A stretch of 64,000 bases of DNA from Escherichia coli (GTDB lineage: Bacteria > Pseudomonadota > Gammaproteobacteria > Enterobacterales > Enterobacteriaceae): assembly GCF_036507355.1 (NCBI RefSeq), contig NZ_AP027877.1; one strand, given 5' to 3'. Below, piece by piece: positions 2,017-58,846 of the stretch (the first letter of the stretch is position 1; each line of letters opens with the position of its first letter). A program made the translations under genes and the position numbers. A model generated the notes under the pieces. That model made no database searches. It saw only the letters and a program-made list of their open reading frames with translations, and was not told the origin of the DNA.

Positions 2017-4241
2017 GCTCTTTCCTTATTCAAACAGGGCTTCAATATCGTTAATTAGCTCGCTGGCGGTGATGGCATCGAGTACGGAGAACTGCGCTTC
2101 CTGTGTTGAATTACTCCCCCAGCCATAGCTTTCTGCGTTGCCTTCCCATAGCCACAGCTTGCTTAAGATTTGCTCGGCACTCAGTTCGGCTGGCGACATG
2201 CCTACCGCAAAACCTTCATCGATTTCCATGATTAACGACCAGCGGCCCAGAGGTTTGATCATCCAGCCGATCCAGCCTCCATCCTGCGGGGTGCCCTTTA
2301 TCCAGCCTTTATTCGCCAGCCCCATGACCCGACCGCTCGGGTATTTTCTGCCTGCCCAGCGGGTCAGTTCGCTGGCGTTGCGCTCGGCTTCTGTCAGGGC
2401 GTAACTGTTACGGTCAAGCTGACGGAACGGTGGTAGCAGTTCATAGTCGGCAAAAAGCTGACCAAAGGCGGCAGCATCCGTCGGTGATATTTCCAGAACG
2501 TGAGGAATGCCAACAGAGATATCGCCTTCCGGCAGGGTGAAAAGATCATCGTCAGCGGTGCTGTAGCTGTTATCTTCCGCCACGCGGAAGCACGTCAGTA
2601 GCTGGTTTTCGGTGCTATAAACGCCCCAAATCAGACGGCGGGTTAAGTGGCGTACCAGTGGATGTTCAACCAGGAAGAGCTGAAAGTTTTCTGGCGACCA
2701 GCGGCGACGCAGGCACATGGCGGATTCCAACCTTGCTACCTGCTGGGCGGCGACGGTACGCGCATCTTTTTTCAGCAGTTTGTAGCGGTTAACAGCATCG
2801 TTCGCCTGTGATTCATCATCGCTTTTGTTTGGTTTGGGCAGGTCTTTCAGACGGCTGCCAGAAACATCACGCACAAACGGTTTTAAGGTTTCATCAAAGC
2901 TGACGGTGAACTGGCGTGAGCCGAAATCCAGCAGCAACGAACCGTTATCATCCAGACCGAGATCCGGTGCTAACCGATCTTCAAGCTCTGCCACCGTGAG
3001 TTCGCGGCTCTCGGCAATGTCGGCAATTTTTTCTTTTGCCCGCTCCTGTAATGCTTTGAATTTCAGTTTCTGGGCGATGCCGTTAAGCTGCATCAGGGCG
3101 ATATCACTACCGATAGCAGCGAGAATATCCAACCCAACGGTGGCGCGTTTATGCTGGGATTCACCAGGCCAGGCGCGGATTAATGGCGTCAGTTTGCGGG
3201 CGGTGTCGTCGTTACCGAGAACGCCTAACGCAGCGAACGCCCAACTCTCTTTCGACGGCGCGCCAGCGGTCTGCCAGGCGGTAAACAGATCCCAGGCAAA
3301 TCCCGCCAGTGAGTCGGCGGTACAGGCATCTTTCACCTGCAATAATCCCGGATACAGAGCCTCTTCCTGAGGGAAGCGGAGCATTTCACCGAGGTGGAGG
3401 AGGGCGCTATCTGGCAGTACCTTGCTGCTATTTTTGAGTTTCGGGCGAGTCCATAATGGAGGTTGATAAAACAACGGTAAAGGGGGGATTTTCGCCGGGT
3501 ATTTACCCACAGGACTGTTGTCGTTATTTTTATTTTGAGTTTCCCAGGGCGGCGAGACTAGTACCATTGGTAGAATTTCTGAGTTTGCAAAATCTTCATT
3601 GCGACTATTCAGCAATTGCTGACATTGTTGCAATAAATTTGCCGCTTGCGACGATAATCCGATGACTAATTTTTCGACCAATAAAGAATTTGCATTAAGT
3701 AATGAAACCAGCAATGTATGTTTGCGTTTATCATCTTTTTTTACCAATGCTTCGGCTAATGCCACTATCGTTGCAGAAGGAAAATTTTCGGCACTTTTTA
3801 TTAGTCGTTCATAACAGCGTTTATTAGTATCGGCGGCTTCGATGAGTGCCGTAATGGCCAACGGATGATTAATACATTTCAGTACGTCACCGCAATTATC
3901 TTCTTCAGCATAGGGAGCCAGGCGAGCCAGTGCCGCTATACCTTGCTCCCGTAATACCGTAGCTGACCAACTGGCACCATAGGTGTTAAATACATCAATG
4001 TATTGATAGTTCTCCAGTATTTCGAGCGTGAATGGATCTGTCGCTACCAGTTTCAACATTTCAAGTTGTGGAACATCTACGACCTGGTGTAAACGATGTA
4101 CGATCTCATGGGCCACTTCGGGTATTTCTGGCATTAAAATGGCAATTAACGGTTGGCGATAGAGTGATATATCTGGTAACGCAACGAGTAATTTTGCAAT
4201 GCAATTTTGCCATACTTCTTCTTCTGGGTAATGACTCCAAC

Positions 4242-4745
4242 TTATTGATAGTGTTTTATGTTCAGATAATGCCCGATGACTTTGTCATGCAGCTCCACCG
4301 ATTTTGAGAACGACAGCGACTTCCGTCCCAGCCGTGCCAGGTGCTGCCTCAGATTCAGGTTATGCCGCTCAATTCGCTGCGTATATCGCTTGCTGATTAC
4401 GTGCAGCTTTCCCTTCAGGCGGGATTCATACAGCGGCCAGCCATCCGTCATCCATATCACCACGTCAAAGGGTGACAGCAGGCTCATAAGACGCCCCAGC
4501 GTCGCCATCGTGCGTTCACCGAATACGTGCGCAACAACCGTCTTCCGGAGCCTGTCATACGCGTAAAACAGCCAGCGCTGGCGCGATTTAGCCCCGACAT
4601 AGCCCCACTGTTCGTCCATTTCCGCGCAGACGATGACGTCACTGCCCGGCTGTATGCGCGAGGTTACCGACTGCGGCCTGAGTTTTTTAAGTGACGTAAA
4701 ATCGTGTTGAGGCCAACGCCCATAATGCGGGCTGTTGCCCGGCAT
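4242..4745 (-). CDS. insB: IS1 InsB (made as InsAB' fusion by -1 frameshift)
   Basis: 167-aa ORF overlapping insA in the -1 frame, as expected for IS1. Confidence 0.9.
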
Positions 4746-4939
4746 CCAACGCCATTCATGGCCATATCAATGATTTTCTGGTGCGTACCGGGTTGAGAAG
4801 CGGTGTAAGTGAACTGCAGTTGCCATGTTTTACGGCAGTGAGAGCAGAGATAGCGCTGATGTCCGGCGGTGCTTTTGCCGTTACGCACCACCCCGTCAGT
4901 AGCTGAACAGGAGGGACAGCTGATAGAAACAGAAGCCAC
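4664..4939 (-). CDS. insA: IS1 InsA
   Basis: 91-aa [43 protein letters not shown]..., identical in all four IS1 copies in the window. Confidence 0.9.
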
Positions 4940-5678
4940 TGGAGCACCTCAAAAACACCATCATACACTAAATCAGTAAGTTGGCAGCATCACCAACTCT
5001 GTAATTCCTGGTGTGATATCCGTGACGGCAGGAATGGGAAGTACCGGTAAATCAAATACGGGTATGACATTCTTTTTCTTATTTATTACCCACGGTGGAG
5101 CGACAAGCAGCTCCGGCAACATATCCACAGTGGCATATTCACATTCTTCAGCTACTGGCAGCGGACGACATTCAGATAAGATGCCTGCCGCCTTAGCATT
5201 AACCCAGGGAATGACCTCGCATACTAACTCTGGCGTGGCGGTAATCAGTTTGACAAGCGCTTTACGCCACTCATTATTTTCATGTATTGCCAGCAAAGTA
5301 GCATAAGCGGCAATAGCCGCAGCGGGATGTTTTTGGCAGGCTTTGCTTAAGTATTCCAGGTGCTTTTTCTTGCCATTTACACCGAGGATCAGAATTTGAA
5401 TCGCATCCGGGTGATTCGTTTTCCATAGCCATTTGACAAGATTTTCAGTCTCGCTGATGCGTTCGAAGAGATAAGTGGGATTGTCAGAATGGTCTTCCGT
5501 AAACTAAAGAAGTATCCGGCTTACACCGCGCACCCCAGATACTGCTCTGAGTACAGTGGAAAAATACGATTTCCCACCGTTGTATCGTGATTTTCGTAAT
5601 TTTCGCGCTTATCTGGCAATGTTGTTGGCAAATAATGAGGTGTACTGGCAATAGCGGACACTACCATTTGTTCTTTTT

Positions 5679-17361: not shown

Positions 17362-17622
17362 ATACTCTCCACTTTGGGGATCAGTAAAATCAGTCGTATA
17401 TCTTTCCCGCCATACAATATAACCGACAAGAGATATTTTGTTAGTGATCCCGTGATTTCGTAAAAAGTGTAAATGAAAGGATGTAGCAAAAGCATCCTCA
17501 TTGAGCGAGAAGTGAGCGGAATAAGCTGATTTAAGAATCATCCTGGGCTAAAAGGATAGCGAAGCCCGGTGATGCTGCCAACTTACTGATTTAGTGTATG
17601 ATGGTGTTTTTGAGGTGCTCCA

Positions 17623-17898
17623 GTGGCTTCTGTTTCTATCAGCTGTCCCTCCTGTTCAGCTACTGACGGGGTGGTGCGTAACGGCAAAAGCACCGCCGGA
17701 CATCAGCGCTATCTCTGCTCTCACTGCCGTAAAACATGGCAACTGCAGTTCACTTACACCGCTTCTCAACCCGGTACGCACCAGAAAATCATTGATATGG
17801 CCATGAATGGCGTTGGATGCCGGGCAACAGCCCGCATTATGGGCGTTGGCCTCAACACGATTTTACGTCACTTAAAAAACTCAGGCCGCAGTCGGTAA
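17623..17898 (+). CDS. insA: IS1 InsA
   Basis: Identical 91-aa InsA. Confidence 0.9.
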
Positions 17899-18320
17899 CC
17901 TCGCGCATACAGCCGGGCAGTGACGTCATCGTCTGCGCGGAAATGGACGAACAGTGGGGCTATGTCGGGGCTAAATCGCGCCAGCGCTGGCTGTTTTACG
18001 CGTATGACAGGCTCCGGAAGACGGTTGTTGCGCACGTATTCGGTGAACGCACGATGGCGACGCTGGGGCGTCTTATGAGCCTGCTGTCACCCTTTGACGT
18101 GGTGATATGGATGACGGATGGCTGGCCGCTGTATGAATCCCGCCTGAAGGGAAAGCTGCACGTAATCAGCAAGCGATATACGCAGCGAATTGAGCGGCAT
18201 AACCTGAATCTGAGGCAGCACCTGGCACGGCTGGGACGGAAGTCGCTGTCGTTCTCAAAATCGGTGGAGCTGCATGACAAAGTCATCGGGCATTATCTGA
18301 ACATAAAACACTATCAATAA
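17817..18320 (+). CDS. insB: IS1 InsB
   Basis: Identical 167-aa InsB. Confidence 0.9.
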
Positions 18321-18355
18321 GTTGGAGTCATTACCGCGAAGCCCAGGTGATTGTT

Positions 18356-52721: not shown

Positions 52722-53612
52722 TCATTTGTTGATTTCAATTTTGTCCCATTCTCTCCCTCGGCTATCCCTATACCGCGCCGCCATTGAATCTGATTTATGT
52801 CCGAGAAGACGTTGAGCAAACTTATCGCCAATCTGATTCCGGTATAGCCTCGCCGACAGGCTACGCAGTTCATGGAATGTTGGTGGGTCTCCATCAAATG
52901 AGAGTCCAGATGCATTTCTCGCCTTTGTAAAATACTTCGATACTGTTTTCGGGGAAAGCGGTTCGTGATGCGTTGAGGCGATTATAGTTTCACTGCCGCT
53001 GGCCTCCCTGCATTTCTGTAGTGTATCAGCCAATGAGATATTGAGCGCGTCAATCGTTAGCATCAGCGGAATGGCGAGCTTAGCCCCTGTTTTACCCTGT
53101 TCAATGTGAAGATGGTTGTCGTTTATGTCTGACCATTTCATTCTGCACAAATCGCCGACTCTCTGCCCTGTAACGACAGCCGAATCCATCGCCAGTCTTA
53201 GCCAGATTGGGAGAGGTTCGGCTGCATGGTAAATCGCGACATACTCATTAGCTGTCAGCCTTGAGCGCCTTACTTCTGACTTTGCTGTGCGGGTTGCTGT
53301 TACCGGATTCGTTTCCACATGCCCCTCGGCTATTGCCTCACGAAAAACGTCAACAAGGGTTGACCTGATTAATTTTGCGGAAGCCGCTTTACCTTCTGCT
53401 ACGTAGGTGTTTAGCATTGCTGCCACCTCTTTCGTTGATATGTCAGCGAGCGGTTTGTCCGGCAATTTTCTTCGGATTGCCCTGATTTTGCTGGCGTAGT
53501 CGAGTAGAGTTTTCGTCCTGATCCCCCTCTCGCTGAGGATTGTTTCATATCGGTCAAGCCACGCATGAAGAGTGATTACGTCAGCGCCTTTAATCCTGTC
53601 TATCAGTGAGGT
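52722..53612 (-). pseudogene. int: Lambda-family tyrosine integrase, C-terminal fragment (truncated by IS600-like insertion)
   Basis: C-terminus ...HELRSLSARLYRNQIGDKFAQRLLGHKSDSMAARYRDSRGREWDKIEINK resembles the lambda Int C-terminus (catalytic R, H-x-x-R, Y). Frame remains open upstream of the first Met up to the IS600 end at 53613. Confidence 0.8.
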
Positions 53613-54122
53613 AGCCTGAGTTTAACGGACACTCCTTCCTGAAATAGAATGGCATCAGAAGGAGCTAATAATGAGCAGAAAAACCCAACGTTACTCTAAA
53701 GAGTTCAAAGCCGAAGCTGTCAGAACGGTTCTTGAAAATCAACTTTCGATCAGTGAAGGCGCTTCCCGATTATCTCTTCCTGAAGGCACTTTAGGACAAT
53801 GGGTTACCGCCGCCAGAAAAGGGCTCGGTACTCCTGGTTCCCGCACGGTGGCTGAACTGGAATCTGAAATTCTGCAACTGCGTAAGGCGTTAAATGAAGC
53901 TCGCCTTGAGCGAGATATATTAAAAAAAGCAACGTATTTTGCACAGGAGTCGCTGAAAAATACGCGTTAATCGAACAATGGCGACAACAATTTCCCATTG
54001 AAGCGATGTGTCAGGTATTTGGTGTATCCAGGAGCGGTTATTACAACTGGGTACAGCATGAACCCTCAGACAGAAAACAAAGTGATGAGCGGCTAAAACT
54101 GGAGATTAAGGTGGCACATACG
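53613..54122 (+). mobile_element. IS600-like element, 5' fragment only
   Basis: Left end TGAGGTAGCCTGAGTTTAACGGACAC at 53613; complete OrfA (53671..53970, identical to the other copy); OrfB matches only for about 38 residues (MCQVFGVSRSGYYNWVQHEPSDRKQSDERLKLEIKVAH) then diverges. Confidence 0.75.
53671..53970 (+). CDS. IS3-family transposase OrfA
   Basis: Identical to the 99-aa OrfA at 6533..6832. Confidence 0.85.
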   Translation: MSRKTQRYSKEFKAEAVRTVLENQLSISEGASRLSLPEGTLGQWVTAARKGLGTPGSRTVAELESEILQLRKALNEARLERDILKKATYFAQESLKNTR

Positions 54123-54149: not shown

Positions 54150-54747
54150 TTACTCACCCTCTTTGATGCGAATGCCAGCGGCGCGTGGCACATTAACTTC
54201 CACGATGCGCACTGTTGGTTTGTACATCTCAATCGCTGTCAGCCAGTCAGCTCCTGTCATGCGCTTTTCCGCATCGCCATTAGTCCACTGAACCGGTACA
54301 CCAATAGCCTTCATCGCGATTTCTATTTCCCCGGCAATGGCGCTTTTTCCGCAACCAGTAAAACCAGAAACAACGACAAGAACTTCACCTTTGGCTGGTT
54401 TTATTTCCCGTGCTTCCAGTTCTGCAATGCGCTTACTTCCATCCGCGATTACTCCCTCGTAATATTCACGCTGCTCGTTGAGTTTTGATTTTGCTGCTTC
54501 AAGCTCAACTCTCAGCTTCCCTACCGTTAGCGCAATATCCTCGTTCTCCTGGTCACGGGATTTGATGTATTGCTGGTTTCTTTCCCGTTCATCCAGAAGC
54601 GCCAGCACGGTTGCCGGATTAGCCTTGGCAACAAAATCACGGACTGGCTTACAATCAATCTCAGCAATGGGTTGATACGATGTGTATCCATGCTGTCTTG
54701 TATAACTACCGTGACGAATAACGAAAAAATCACCATTTATTTTTTTA
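54150..54747 (-). pseudogene. Phage early-region protein fragment (Ead/Ea22-like, tentative), N-terminus removed by IS1
   Basis: Reading frame enters from inside IS1 (the ORF-track start codon lies within the IS1 end); C-terminal part ...LVVVSGFTGCGKSAIAGEIEIAMKAIGVPVQW. The family assignment is by resemblance only. Confidence 0.4.
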
Positions 54748-54771
54748 GCCTGCCACGGTAATGACTCCAAC

Positions 54772-55275
54772 TTATTGATAGTGTTTTATGTTCAGATAAT
54801 GCCCGATGACTTTGTCATGCAGCTCCACCGATTTTGAGAACGACAGCGACTTCCGTCCCAGCCGTGCCAGGTGCTGCCTCAGATTCAGGTTATGCCGCTC
54901 AATTCGCTGCGTATATCGCTTGCTGATTACGTGCAGCTTTCCCTTCAGGCGGGATTCATACAGCGGCCAGCCATCCGTCATCCATATCACCACGTCAAAG
55001 GGTGACAGCAGGCTCATAAGACGCCCCAGCGTCGCCATCGTGCGTTCACCGAATACGTGCGCAACAACCGTCTTCCGGAGCCTGTCATACGCGTAAAACA
55101 GCCAGCGCTGGCGCGATTTAGCCCCGACATAGCCCCACTGTTCGTCCATTTCCGCGCAGACGATGACGTCACTGCCCGGCTGTATGCGCGAGGTTACCGA
55201 CTGCGGCCTGAGTTTTTTAAGTGACGTAAAATCGTGTTGAGGCCAACGCCCATAATGCGGGCTGTTGCCCGGCAT
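54772..55275 (-). CDS. insB: IS1 InsB
   Basis: Identical 167-aa InsB. Confidence 0.9.
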
Positions 55276-55469
55276 CCAACGCCATTCATGGCCATATCAA
55301 TGATTTTCTGGTGCGTACCGGGTTGAGAAGCGGTGTAAGTGAACTGCAGTTGCCATGTTTTACGGCAGTGAGAGCAGAGATAGCGCTGATGTCCGGCGGT
55401 GCTTTTGCCGTTACGCACCACCCCGTCAGTAGCTGAACAGGAGGGACAGCTGATAGAAACAGAAGCCAC
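55194..55469 (-). CDS. insA: IS1 InsA
   Basis: Identical 91-aa InsA. Confidence 0.9.
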
Positions 55470-55548
55470 TGGAGCACCTCAAAAACACCATCATACACTA
55501 AATCAGTAAGTTGGCAGCATCACCGCCTGCCACGGTAATGACTCCAAC

Positions 55549-56052
55549 TTATTGATAGTGTTTTATGTTCAGATAATGCCCGATGACTTTGTCATGCAGC
55601 TCCACCGATTTTGAGAACGACAGCGACTTCCGTCCCAGCCGTGCCAGGTGCTGCCTCAGATTCAGGTTATGCCGCTCAATTCGCTGCGTATATCGCTTGC
55701 TGATTACGTGCAGCTTTCCCTTCAGGCGGGATTCATACAGCGGCCAGCCATCCGTCATCCATATCACCACGTCAAAGGGTGACAGCAGGCTCATAAGACG
55801 CCCCAGCGTCGCCATCGTGCGTTCACCGAATACGTGCGCAACAACCGTCTTCCGGAGCCTGTCATACGCGTAAAACAGCCAGCGCTGGCGCGATTTAGCC
55901 CCGACATAGCCCCACTGTTCGTCCATTTCCGCGCAGACGATGACGTCACTGCCCGGCTGTATGCGCGAGGTTACCGACTGCGGCCTGAGTTTTTTAAGTG
56001 ACGTAAAATCGTGTTGAGGCCAACGCCCATAATGCGGGCTGTTGCCCGGCAT
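55549..56052 (-). CDS. insB: IS1 InsB
   Basis: Identical 167-aa InsB. Confidence 0.9.
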
Positions 56053-56246
56053 CCAACGCCATTCATGGCCATATCAATGATTTTCTGGTGCGTACCGGGT
56101 TGAGAAGCGGTGTAAGTGAACTGCAGTTGCCATGTTTTACGGCAGTGAGAGCAGAGATAGCGCTGATGTCCGGCGGTGCTTTTGCCGTTACGCACCACCC
56201 CGTCAGTAGCTGAACAGGAGGGACAGCTGATAGAAACAGAAGCCAC
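55971..56246 (-). CDS. insA: IS1 InsA
   Basis: Identical 91-aa InsA. Confidence 0.9.
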
Positions 56247-56296
56247 TGGAGCACCTCAAAAACACCATCATACACTAAATCAGTAAGTTGGCAGCA

Positions 56297-57112
56297 TCAC
56301 CCTTCCTTGATTCTTTTTTCTTCTGCTATTCTGGCTTGCTCTTTTGCTTCAGCCTCGCGCCGGATTCGTTCAGCCTCCTCCTGTGCTTTTCTGCGTTCTG
56401 CTTCAATTGCTGCCTGCTTTTCTCTTTCAGCTCGTTCTGCTGCCTCTTTTGCTTCGCGCTGTGCTCTCTGCTCGGCTTCAATGCGTTCACGCTCTGCACG
56501 TTCCGCTGCGGCCTTAGCTTCTGCTTCTCGCCTTGCTGCTGCTTCAATTTCGGCTTTTGCCTTTGCTTCGGCTTCAGCTCTGGCTTTCTCTTCAGCTTCT
56601 CTTTTTAAGCGTTCTTCATGCTCTCGCTTTTCCTGCTCCGCTTTGAGTCTTGCCTCTTCTCTTTGGCGGTCAAATTCGCGATCCATCAAAATCGCTATTT
56701 CATGGTCAGACTCAATTTGCTTTGCGAGAGCTTCAGCTGCTGCCTTAGCTTCTTCTTCGGCTTTAATCCGCGCCTGTTCTTCCTCATAATCAGTAAGAGG
56801 CTGGCGCGCCTTGGCTTTCAGTTCATCAAGGCGATCGCGCACTGTCTTGCGGTTGGCATCAATTAGCTTTGGAATTTCCTTCAGTTCAGCAACAAGGTCT
56901 TTGCCAAGACCATCGAGATATGTTTTCGTCTGCGCAACTTTATACGCCAGAGAAGCGATCTCCTTTCTGCCCTTTGCCGTTGTGATATCAGGCACAAAGG
57001 ACATAACTTCACGTTCAACCTTTTGAAGGATTTCTTCAATCTGGTCGGCAGACTGAAATACAGTCATTGCATTTGCTTTTTCAATAACAACTAAATCTGT
57101 TACTTCACTCAT
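56297..57112 (-). pseudogene. Phage protein with E/A/K/R-rich coiled-coil, C-terminally truncated by IS1
   Basis: Probable start MSEVTDLVVIEKANAMTVFQ at 57112, preceded by GGAGG. Long EAKAAAEALAK / REAEAK low-complexity helix; the stop codon TGA is supplied by the IS1 terminus (GGTGATG). Confidence 0.5.
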
Positions 57113-57246
57113 ATATCCTCCATCAAAAAAATTGCCCTCACATCGGAGGGCAAAGAAGATTTCCAATAATCAGAACAAGTCGGCTCCTGTTTAGTTACGA
57201 GCGACATTGCTCCGTGTATTCACTCGTTGGAATGAATACACAGTGC

Positions 57247-57450
57247 TTATTCGCGAGCTTTGAGCATTGCGTCTGCAAACTTATATGCAGCGCTTGCTGC
57301 ATAATTAACAGCTCCATCAGAATCATTATCGATAATCGATGGATTGCTAATCATTGCTTGCATAGCCTTAGCAGCGAAGTAATCACGTAATGTCGCATCA
57401 CTTGCCATTTCTGGGCGTTTGATATCTGCTTCATAAAACTCGCACATCAT
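57247..57450 (-). CDS. Hypothetical small phage protein
   Basis: 67-aa ORF MMCEFYEADIKRPEMASDATLRDYFAAKAMQAM..., preceded by GGAGGTGA RBS. Confidence 0.45.
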   Translation of the reverse strand: MMCEFYEADIKRPEMASDATLRDYFAAKAMQAMISNPSIIDNDSDGAVNYAASAAYKFADAMLKARE

Positions 57451-57674
57451 TCACCTCCCAGAGCCTTGCTGATTGCTGCAAGACCTTTATTAACAGCTCC
57501 ATACCATTCTGGATATGTTGTCGTTGTTCTATTTTTGGATTGCTTAAGTAATAACTGAAGTGCTTCGAGAAGGTCAGGTGCTGCCGCTATTAGATTGGCA
57601 TCTTCAATACATTGAACTGAATCGCCACGGGTTTAACAGACACCTCAGAGTCATTTAAGATGGCTTAAAGAGAG

Positions 57675-57959
57675 GTGCCCATGAGCGGTAAGCGTTATCC
57701 CGAAGAGTTTAAAATTGAAGCAGTCAAACAGGTTGTTGATCGCGGTTATTCTGTTGCCAGCGTTGCAACACGTCTCGATATCACCACCCACAGCCTTTAC
57801 GCCTGGATAAAGAAGTACGGTCCGGATTCTTCCGCTAATAAAGAACAGTCAGATGCTCAGGCCGAGATCCGCCGTCTCCAGAAAGAGCTGAAGCGGGTTA
57901 CCGACGAACGGGACATATTAAAAAAAGCCGCGGCGTACTTCGCAAAGCTGTCCGACTGA
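57675..57959 (+). CDS. IS3-family transposase OrfA
   Basis: 94-aa ORF MPMSGKRYPEEFKIEAVKQVVDRGYSVASVATRLDITTHSLYAWIKKYG... Confidence 0.85.
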   Translation: MPMSGKRYPEEFKIEAVKQVVDRGYSVASVATRLDITTHSLYAWIKKYGPDSSANKEQSDAQAEIRRLQKELKRVTDERDILKKAAAYFAKLSD

Positions 57960-58015
57960 GGTACGCCTTTATCCGTGACAACACCTGTTGCTGGCCTGTT
58001 CGCCTGCTCTGTCGG

Positions 58016-58828
58016 GTGCTGGATGTTCATCCCAGTGGTTTTTACGCCTGGCTTCAGCAGCCGCATTCACAACGCCATCAGGCAGACCTGAGGCTGACAG
58101 GGCAGATTAAACAGTTCTGGCTGGAATCGGGATGCGTCTATGGTTATCGCAAAATCCATCTGGATCTGCGGGACAGCGGGCAACAGTGCGGAGTGAACAG
58201 AGTCTGGCGACTGATGAAACGTGTCGGGATAAAGGCTCAGGTCGGATACCGGAGCCCGCGGGCACGTAAAGGCGAGGCCAGTATCGTGTCGCCCAACAGG
58301 CTCCAGCGACAGTTCAATCCGGATGCTCCGGATAAGCGTTGGGTAACGGACATAACCTACATCAGGACCCACGAAGGCTGGCTGTATCTTGCCGTGGTTG
58401 TTGATCTGTTCTCACGCAAAATTATCGGCTGGTCCATGCAATCCCGGATGACAAAGGACATTGTCCTGAACGCACTGCTGATGGCTGTATGGCGCCGTAA
58501 TCCCCAAAAACAGGTGCTGGTTCATTCGGATCAGGGCAGTCAGTACACAAGCCATGAGTGGCAGTCGTTCCTGAAATCACACGGCCTGGATGGCAGCATG
58601 AGCCGTCGCGGTAACTGCCATGATAATGCGGTTGCAGAAAGCTTTTTCCAGTTGTTGAAACGCGAACGGATAAAGAAAAAGATCTACGGAACGCGGGAAG
58701 AAGCCCGCAGCGATATTTTTGATTACATCGAAATGTTTTATAACAGTAAGCGTCGGCATGGTTCCAGCGATCAGATGTCACCGACAGAATATGAAAACCA
58801 GTATTATCAACGGCTCGGAAGTGTCTAG
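58016..58828 (+). CDS. IS3-family transposase OrfB (DDE)
   Basis: 270-aa ORF with DDE motifs (WVTDITY...HSDQGSQYTS...NAVAESFF). Confidence 0.85.
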   Translation: MLDVHPSGFYAWLQQPHSQRHQADLRLTGQIKQFWLESGCVYGYRKIHLDLRDSGQQCGVNRVWRLMKRVGIKAQVGYRSPRARKGEASIVSPNRLQRQFNPDAPDKRWVTDITYIRTHEGWLYLAVVVDLFSRKIIGWSMQSRMTKDIVLNALLMAVWRRNPQKQVLVHSDQGSQYTSHEWQSFLKSHGLDGSMSRRGNCHDNAVAESFFQLLKRERIKKKIYGTREEARSDIFDYIEMFYNSKRRHGSSDQMSPTEYENQYYQRLGSV

Positions 58829-58846
58829 ATTATCCGTGGCGATTCA

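Follow-up and report, generated by a model that had tools for sequence, protein, structure and literature searches.

The intact homologue of the gene analysed here is gene 33 of Shigella phage Sf6 (NP_958209.1, 322 aa). Within the early-left operon it sits between the terminator annotated as tL2A and cIII/kil (L001:3135-4103), and it has counterparts in gp32 of phage Sf101, in a 'TolA protein' of phage 683R2 and in PHROG 1376. The annotations of Sf6, 683R2 and Sf101 agree on a gene length of 969 nt. The full-length homologue is matched by PHROG 1376 (E 2e-110), which is listed as of unknown function, and also by PHROG 17211; searches of Pfam (E up to 10), NCBIfam (E ≤ 0.01) and PADLOC gave no match. 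A sequence search of the PDB returned only weak, composition-driven matches, the best of them to Zuotin (E 0.0046), and a Foldseek comparison of the AlphaFold model with the PDB gave nothing below an E value of 1.9. No study of Sf6 gene 33 was found in a literature search; in the phage L genome paper, the majority of early-left genes have no known function.

The gene 33 family is large (proteins P0083-P0225). Counted as clusters at 50% identity, 4984 representatives were retrieved with the N-terminal 121 residues at E ≤ 0.001 and 3503 at E ≤ 1e-10, and the top matches listed were mostly 290-390 aa long. The natural length was judged from this exhaustive search of representatives and from DNA searches; a word-indexed search with the N-terminal domain gave fragments of at most 212 aa only. 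In 43 aligned representatives (34-57% identity), conserved N-terminal and C-terminal domains flank a helical E/A/K/R-rich region of variable length. The C-terminal domain comprises about 45 residues, from the motif RE-AD..H...IN to I.Y, and is found in most of the 43 members, none of which has a Pfam match. The AlphaFold model of the full-length Sf6 protein is nearly all helix (residues 46-172 and 181-295), with block-mean pLDDT values of 87-96 over residues 271-322. A family of this size, with conserved terminal domains and no Pfam model, may repay further work. The common annotation as TolA was considered and rejected, as it is backed by neither the Pfam search at E ≤ 10 nor the NCBIfam search at E ≤ 0.01. 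TolA is a cell envelope integrity protein, whereas gene 33 belongs to a phage early-left operon, and the two have in common only a helical composition rich in Ala, Glu and Lys. The label is a composition artefact.

Two kinds of rearrangement by insertion sequences come close to the one described below. IS1 produces target duplications of 8-9 bp (PMC12428005), and a missing duplication is the expected mark of recombination between IS copies or of an adjacent deletion (PMC11708052). In the IS-associated deletions of E. coli evolution lines (PMC11708052), a single element sits at the deletion junction without a duplication around it. The second kind consists of the tandem dimers, (IS)2, and circles of IS30, IS256 and IS911, in which identical copies lie head-to-tail with abutted ends and the spacer is a few bp of flanking DNA. 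IS1 itself is said to form circles and to make replicative deletions. The spacer at an IS1 circle junction is 6-9 bp.

The window is the whole stretch of E. coli DNA that was analysed, 64,000 nucleotides in length. It contains a copy of gene 33, here called g33', whose upstream context is that of Sf6, Sf101 and 683R2 (a 67-aa ORF, a tL2A-type terminator, a Shine-Dalgarno sequence and the ATG). It differs from Sf6 gene 33 in that residues 271-322 and the downstream cIII and kil are missing and the ORF ends in IS1. The junction resembles the deletions of the evolution lines in having an IS at the break, flanks from two genes with kilobases between them in intact phages, and no duplication around it. 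It differs in that two tandem IS1 copies with a 9-bp copy of one flank take the place of the single element. With the tandem dimers of other IS families it shares the identical head-to-tail copies, the abutted ends and a spacer of a few bp from the flanking DNA. The features of the region are listed in Table 1.

Table 1. Features of the region around g33' in the window.
Feature	Position	Strand	Basis or remark
Integrase-like remnant	52722..53605	-	translation judged by eye; adjoins mdtA
Partial IS600-like element (orfA and start of orfB)	53606..54119	+	between the integrase-like and ea22 remnants
ead/Ea22-like gene, 3' remnant	54150..54756	-	Pfam PF13935; alignment with intact E. coli prophage copy L004
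IS1 copy A, 768 bp	54757..55524	-	identical to copy B, same orientation
9-bp spacer GCCTGCCAC	55525..55533	.	same sequence as 54748-54756
IS1 copy B, 768 bp	55534..56301	-	GGTGATGCTGCC end abuts g33'; insA and insB on minus strand
Hybrid codon 271 and stop TGA	56297..56302	-	sequence read and translation
g33' (truncated Sf6 gene 33 homologue, codons 1-270)	56303..57112	-	protein and DNA alignments; PHROG 1376
G + C-rich hairpin and T-run, tL2A in Sf6	57132..57153	-	Sf6 annotation; collinear with Sf101
Intact 67-aa phage ORF upstream of g33'	57247..57450	-	Sf101 gp33 homologue; PHROG 2201
IS3-family element, 1229 bp	57618..58846	+	38-nt imperfect terminal inverted repeats; no target duplication

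The ORF starts on the minus strand with an ATG at 57112, preceded by a GGAGG Shine-Dalgarno sequence, and runs for 271 sense codons to a TGA at 56299-56297. A 289-aa version started at a TTG has no support from the Sf6 annotation. The last phage base is 56302; together with 56301-56300 of IS1 it makes codon 271 (GGG, Gly), and the TGA that follows is wholly IS1 sequence, located in the inverted repeat end GGTGATG. The initial annotation, which had described an E/A/K/R-rich ORF that runs into IS1 and takes its stop from GGTGATG, was thus correct, and its coordinates 56297-57112 are exact. An N-terminal domain of about residues 1-115 is followed by an E/A/K/R-rich helical region, and the four amino acids together make up 81% of residues 111-270 in the translation. 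Read in the three frames, the IS1 end gives a stop at codon 1, 7 or 9, so that any ORF cut here stops within 9 codons. The immediate TGA in g33' is a one-in-three outcome of chance and nothing special.

The protein is 100% identical to the phage 683R2 homologue through residue 270, after which only the Gly and the stop follow. Across the retained part it has 99% identity to Sf6 gp33, with the match running through residue 269/270, and residues 1-115 are identical to those of the Sf6, 683R2 and Sf101 proteins. At the DNA level, 56302-57250 shows 98-99% identity over its full length to 35 lambdoid/P22-like phage records, including those of Shigella phages Sf6 and Sf101 and of E. coli phages HK544, CUS-3 and mEp213. 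When phage and E. coli records were searched with a 309-nt probe centred on the break, the probe was spanned uninterrupted in 35 of 35 phage records and in 513 of the 535 E. coli records containing it, which shows that the gene naturally ends at codon 322. A natural ending at the position of the break was looked for in these records and none was found. It had been proposed to locate and align the intact homologue, and loss of an unknown part of the C-terminus was one of two options given; the alignment with Sf6 gene 33 puts that loss at 52 residues of the 322-aa homologues, all after residue 270. The conserved C-terminal domain of the family is absent from the window copy, which ends at residue 271. 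The window copy is a truncated remnant of a gene 33 family member and not an intact member. Its exact 271-aa sequence was absent from the clustered protein collection.

Adjoining the break are two identical IS1 copies, arranged head-to-tail with the GGTGATGCTGCC end toward g33'. They have the terminal inverted repeats GGTGATGCTGCCAACTTACTGAT and GGTAATGACTCCAACTTATTGAT and ORFs of 91 aa and 167 aa (insA and insB'), and their matches in E. coli are annotated as IS1A family transposase. The stretch 54748-56301 is an exact 2 x 777-bp tandem, in which 9 bp plus IS1 are present twice. GCCTGCCAC stands on both sides of copy A, and CTTCCTTGA lies to the right of copy B. No target duplication was found around copy B or around the pair as a whole. 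The GCCTGCCAC repeat may be a true duplication, or a flank that was copied when the tandem was formed. In total the window holds four 768-bp IS1 copies that are 100% identical. The other two are located at 4227-4994 and 17568-18335; the copy at 17568 has a normal 9-bp duplication (GCGAAGCCC), and the copy at 4227 has none, which suggests that it marks another IS1-associated rearrangement.

On the far side of the IS1 pair the phage DNA belongs to another gene. The ORF found there is an unrelated ead/Ea22-like gene (PF13935, 93.3 bits against a cut-off of 27, E 2.6e-26), so the other option of the initial annotation, that the ORFs on the two sides are separate genes, holds as well. An intact E. 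coli prophage copy of ea22 (L004) reads ...GATAAGTGGCAGGCTAAAAAAATAAATGG..., and its alignment with the window gene begins at GTGGCAGGC; about 20 codons are missing from the N-terminus. In annotation, the 271-aa ORF is best entered as a pseudogene of the Sf6 gene 33 family with its 3' end missing, under a name other than 'TolA' and kept apart from the Ea22-like ORF. The C-terminal half of the Ea22-like protein (54150-54560, minus strand) contains a Walker A-like motif, GFTGCGKS, and weakly matches adenylyl-sulfate kinase, well short of the cut-off (E 0.0098), a hint that the Ead/Ea22 domain may be fused with a P-loop domain.

In Sf101, eleven annotated genes, including cIII, kil, erf and abc2, lie between the gene 33 homologue and the Ea22-like gene, and the equivalents of the two break points are about 3.4 kb apart. 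The Sf101 segment 8949-12400 has no blastn match anywhere in the 64-kb window, which indicates that the intervening DNA was deleted and not moved within the window. Sf6 and Sf101 have homology to the window at 56304-57478 and nowhere else in it. A gene merely split by a simple insertion was also considered; this was rejected, as the 3' end of g33 is nowhere in the window. The window ea22 allele is a different mosaic variant from that of Sf101: at the nucleotide level nothing in it matches the Sf101 segment, although this segment takes in no more than the initial ~70 nt of Sf101 ea22. E. coli PSS-11, which carries the same gtr cluster, was tried as a stand-in for the ancestor and rejected, its prophage being different and also decayed. 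The size of the deletion and the list of lost genes rest on synteny with Sf101.

Identical head-to-tail IS1 copies, a 9-bp repeat from the ea22 side and no duplication around the pair form the signature of an IS1-mediated deletion. It is highly probable that the window gene is the 5' 84% of a gene 33 family gene, cut by such a deletion and probably both non-functional and silent. The ancestral gene would have been a member of the Sf6 gene 33 family in the early-left (pL) operon of a P22/Sf6-like (Lederbergvirus) prophage. An IS1-mediated deletion would have removed the last 52 codons of g33 together with the downstream genes of the pL operon (in an Sf101-like layout cIII, kil, erf, abc2 and several others, ~3.4 kb), and would have joined the g33 break through IS1 to codon ~21 of the ead/Ea22-like gene. 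The g33 frame now enters the IS1 inverted repeat for 2 bases and stops at the TGA. The tandem duplication (IS1 plus 9 bp, twice) is a separate event, either before or after the deletion. The order of events and the exact size of the deletion are what we infer from the present arrangement.

Two routes to this deletion were weighed. One possible route starts from two independent IS1 insertions in the same orientation, at codon 270 of g33 and within the ea22-like gene, after which RecA-dependent recombination deleted the DNA between them, the tandem arising before or after. The four identical IS1 copies of the window offer ample substrate for it, the GCCTGCCAC sequences flanking copy A resemble an ordinary 9-bp target duplication from an insertion in ea22, and recombination between IS copies is often the cause of missing duplications (PMC11708052). 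However, an extra event is needed to place the second IS1 exactly 9 bp from the first, and no strain with either of the single insertions was found among the complete E. coli genomes and species representatives searched. In the species-representative genomes, the exact pattern of the junction between g33 and IS1 had 0 matches.

The other route, which we hold to be just as possible, requires a single IS1. A transposase-mediated adjacent deletion (replicative and intramolecular) would have fused g33 codon 270 to ea22, and the IS1 with its 9-bp flank would have been duplicated in tandem later, for instance via an excised circle that re-enters the resident copy through homologous recombination. 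This agrees with the pair, taken together, being flanked by no target duplication, and so do tandem IS1 pairs elsewhere in E. coli: the one-sided spacer pattern of the window is seen in 6 of 17 other pairs, in 3 of the 17 both flanks are copied, and a further 3 have an outer-flank duplication around an unrelated spacer. The one-sided, both-flank and outer-duplication classes are all explained by a route through circles or dimers. Against it stands that there is no direct sign of IS1 circles in the window strain.

These other pairs were found by searching E. coli with the IS1-spacer-IS1 junction. About 40 of the best 60 matches were tight tandems, in which the whole junction was covered by one aligned piece of 166-169 nt. 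The 17 pairs compared with the window (loci L017-L033) have spacers of 6-9 bp. With the window pair included and an offset of 1-2 nt allowed by eye, the spacer copies one outer flank only, as in the window, in 7 of the 18 pairs and both outer flanks in 3; another 3 have an 8-9 bp duplication around the whole pair with an unrelated spacer, and in the remaining class (5/18) the spacer has no relation to the flanks. The exact pattern of an IS1 end, N0-20 and an IS1 start had no matches in species-representative genomes, and no description of tandem IS1 pairs was found in the literature searched. Judged from these loci, tandem IS1 pairs with flank-derived spacers are common in E. coli. The classes suggest that pairs are formed via IS1 circles or dimers and that a pair may move as a unit; an IS1 circle with a few flank bases that re-enters a resident IS1 would explain all of them. 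That the window pair itself is a dimer made by transposase, for example by a circle with 6-9 bp of flank re-entering the resident copy, and that such dimers are widespread, little described and mark or drive one-sided deletions, is a broader proposal, and we consider it rather unlikely. The tandem IS1 architecture may repay further work and, like the gene 33 family, is perhaps more useful than the truncation itself.

The terminator hairpin (57153-57132) stands directly upstream of the g33' start codon, the minus strand from the IS3-family element to the g33' ATG showed no promoter-like site, and pL and N are absent from the window. From this combination g33' is predicted to be probably silent, although weak read-through is possible. 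The loss of the conserved C-terminal domain makes it most likely that a product would be non-functional, a prediction that follows from the domain loss alone. There is little to recommend the opposite view, that the 271-aa protein is expressed and has been retained since its N-terminal domain and coiled coil are useful to the host, and we regard it as very improbable. It could draw on the 270 codons without a further lesion, which match phage 683R2 exactly, and on the nearby conversion genes gtrABC, which belong to this prophage and look intact. However, the near-identity to phage copies may just mean that the event was recent, and the upstream terminator, the missing promoter-like site, the loss of N and pL and the loss of the C-terminal domain all speak against expression of a useful protein.

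An even smaller chance is given to the junction, or the tandem IS1 pair, being an assembly artefact of a repeat-rich region. Four identical 768-bp repeats within 64 kb are hard to assemble, and the junction between g33 and IS1 was absent from the complete E. coli genomes of the collection searched. However, the exact protein has one match, its sole one, on a 1.4-kb short-read contig of a separate assembly that ends at IS1. The presence of the same 271-aa product, ending at IS1, on an independent contig argues against misassembly. In addition, tandem IS1 pairs with spacers of 6-9 bp are found in dozens of complete E. coli genomes, and the structure of spacer and flank is internally coherent. 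The idea that the ORF ends where a gene naturally ends, as a short isoform with IS1 merely downstream, can practically be dismissed: the existence of a stop codon is all that speaks for it, against 322-aa homologues, phage and E. coli records that continue through the break, and a stop and two bases of the last codon that are IS1 sequence.

The prophage remnant has mdtA on one side and the ibs/yegL region on the other. In order of increasing coordinates it consists of the integrase-like remnant, the partial IS600-like element, the ea22 remnant, the two IS1 copies and g33', followed by the 67-aa ORF, the IS3-family element, a tailspike remnant, gtrC, gtrB and gtrA. If the integrase-like remnant is indeed an integrase, the attL side of the decayed prophage is located there. 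The element next to it is taken to be IS600-like from its orfA, orfB and end sequences; it breaks off ~30 bp short of the ea22-like stop codon. On its other side this element cuts the integrase-like remnant, and xis and neighbouring genes are consequently missing. The IS3-family element cuts the next upstream phage gene, an early-left gene, and abuts the 3' remnant of the tailspike gene (58847-59534). A truncated early-left gene is thereby joined directly to the tailspike remnant, so that most of the prophage is lost at this element: pL, N, the immunity region and everything else as far as the tailspike gene.

IS1, the IS3-family element and the IS600-like element have thus stripped the prophage of almost everything but the gtrABC glucosylation genes. 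The truncation of g33 is one decay step of a P22/Sf6-like prophage at mdtA-ibs/yegL and matters little by itself; an IS1-truncated pseudogene in a decayed Sf6/Sf101-like prophage is a well-known, ordinary kind of prophage decay. The O-antigen glucosylation cluster, gtrA-gtrB-gtr (495 aa), at 59580-62400 is apparently intact and is the sole part of the prophage that looks whole. An identical gtr-specific protein is on record from E. coli. Other E. coli assemblies have the same gtr cluster beside ibs/yegL, which suggests that conversion genes are kept while the phage decays.
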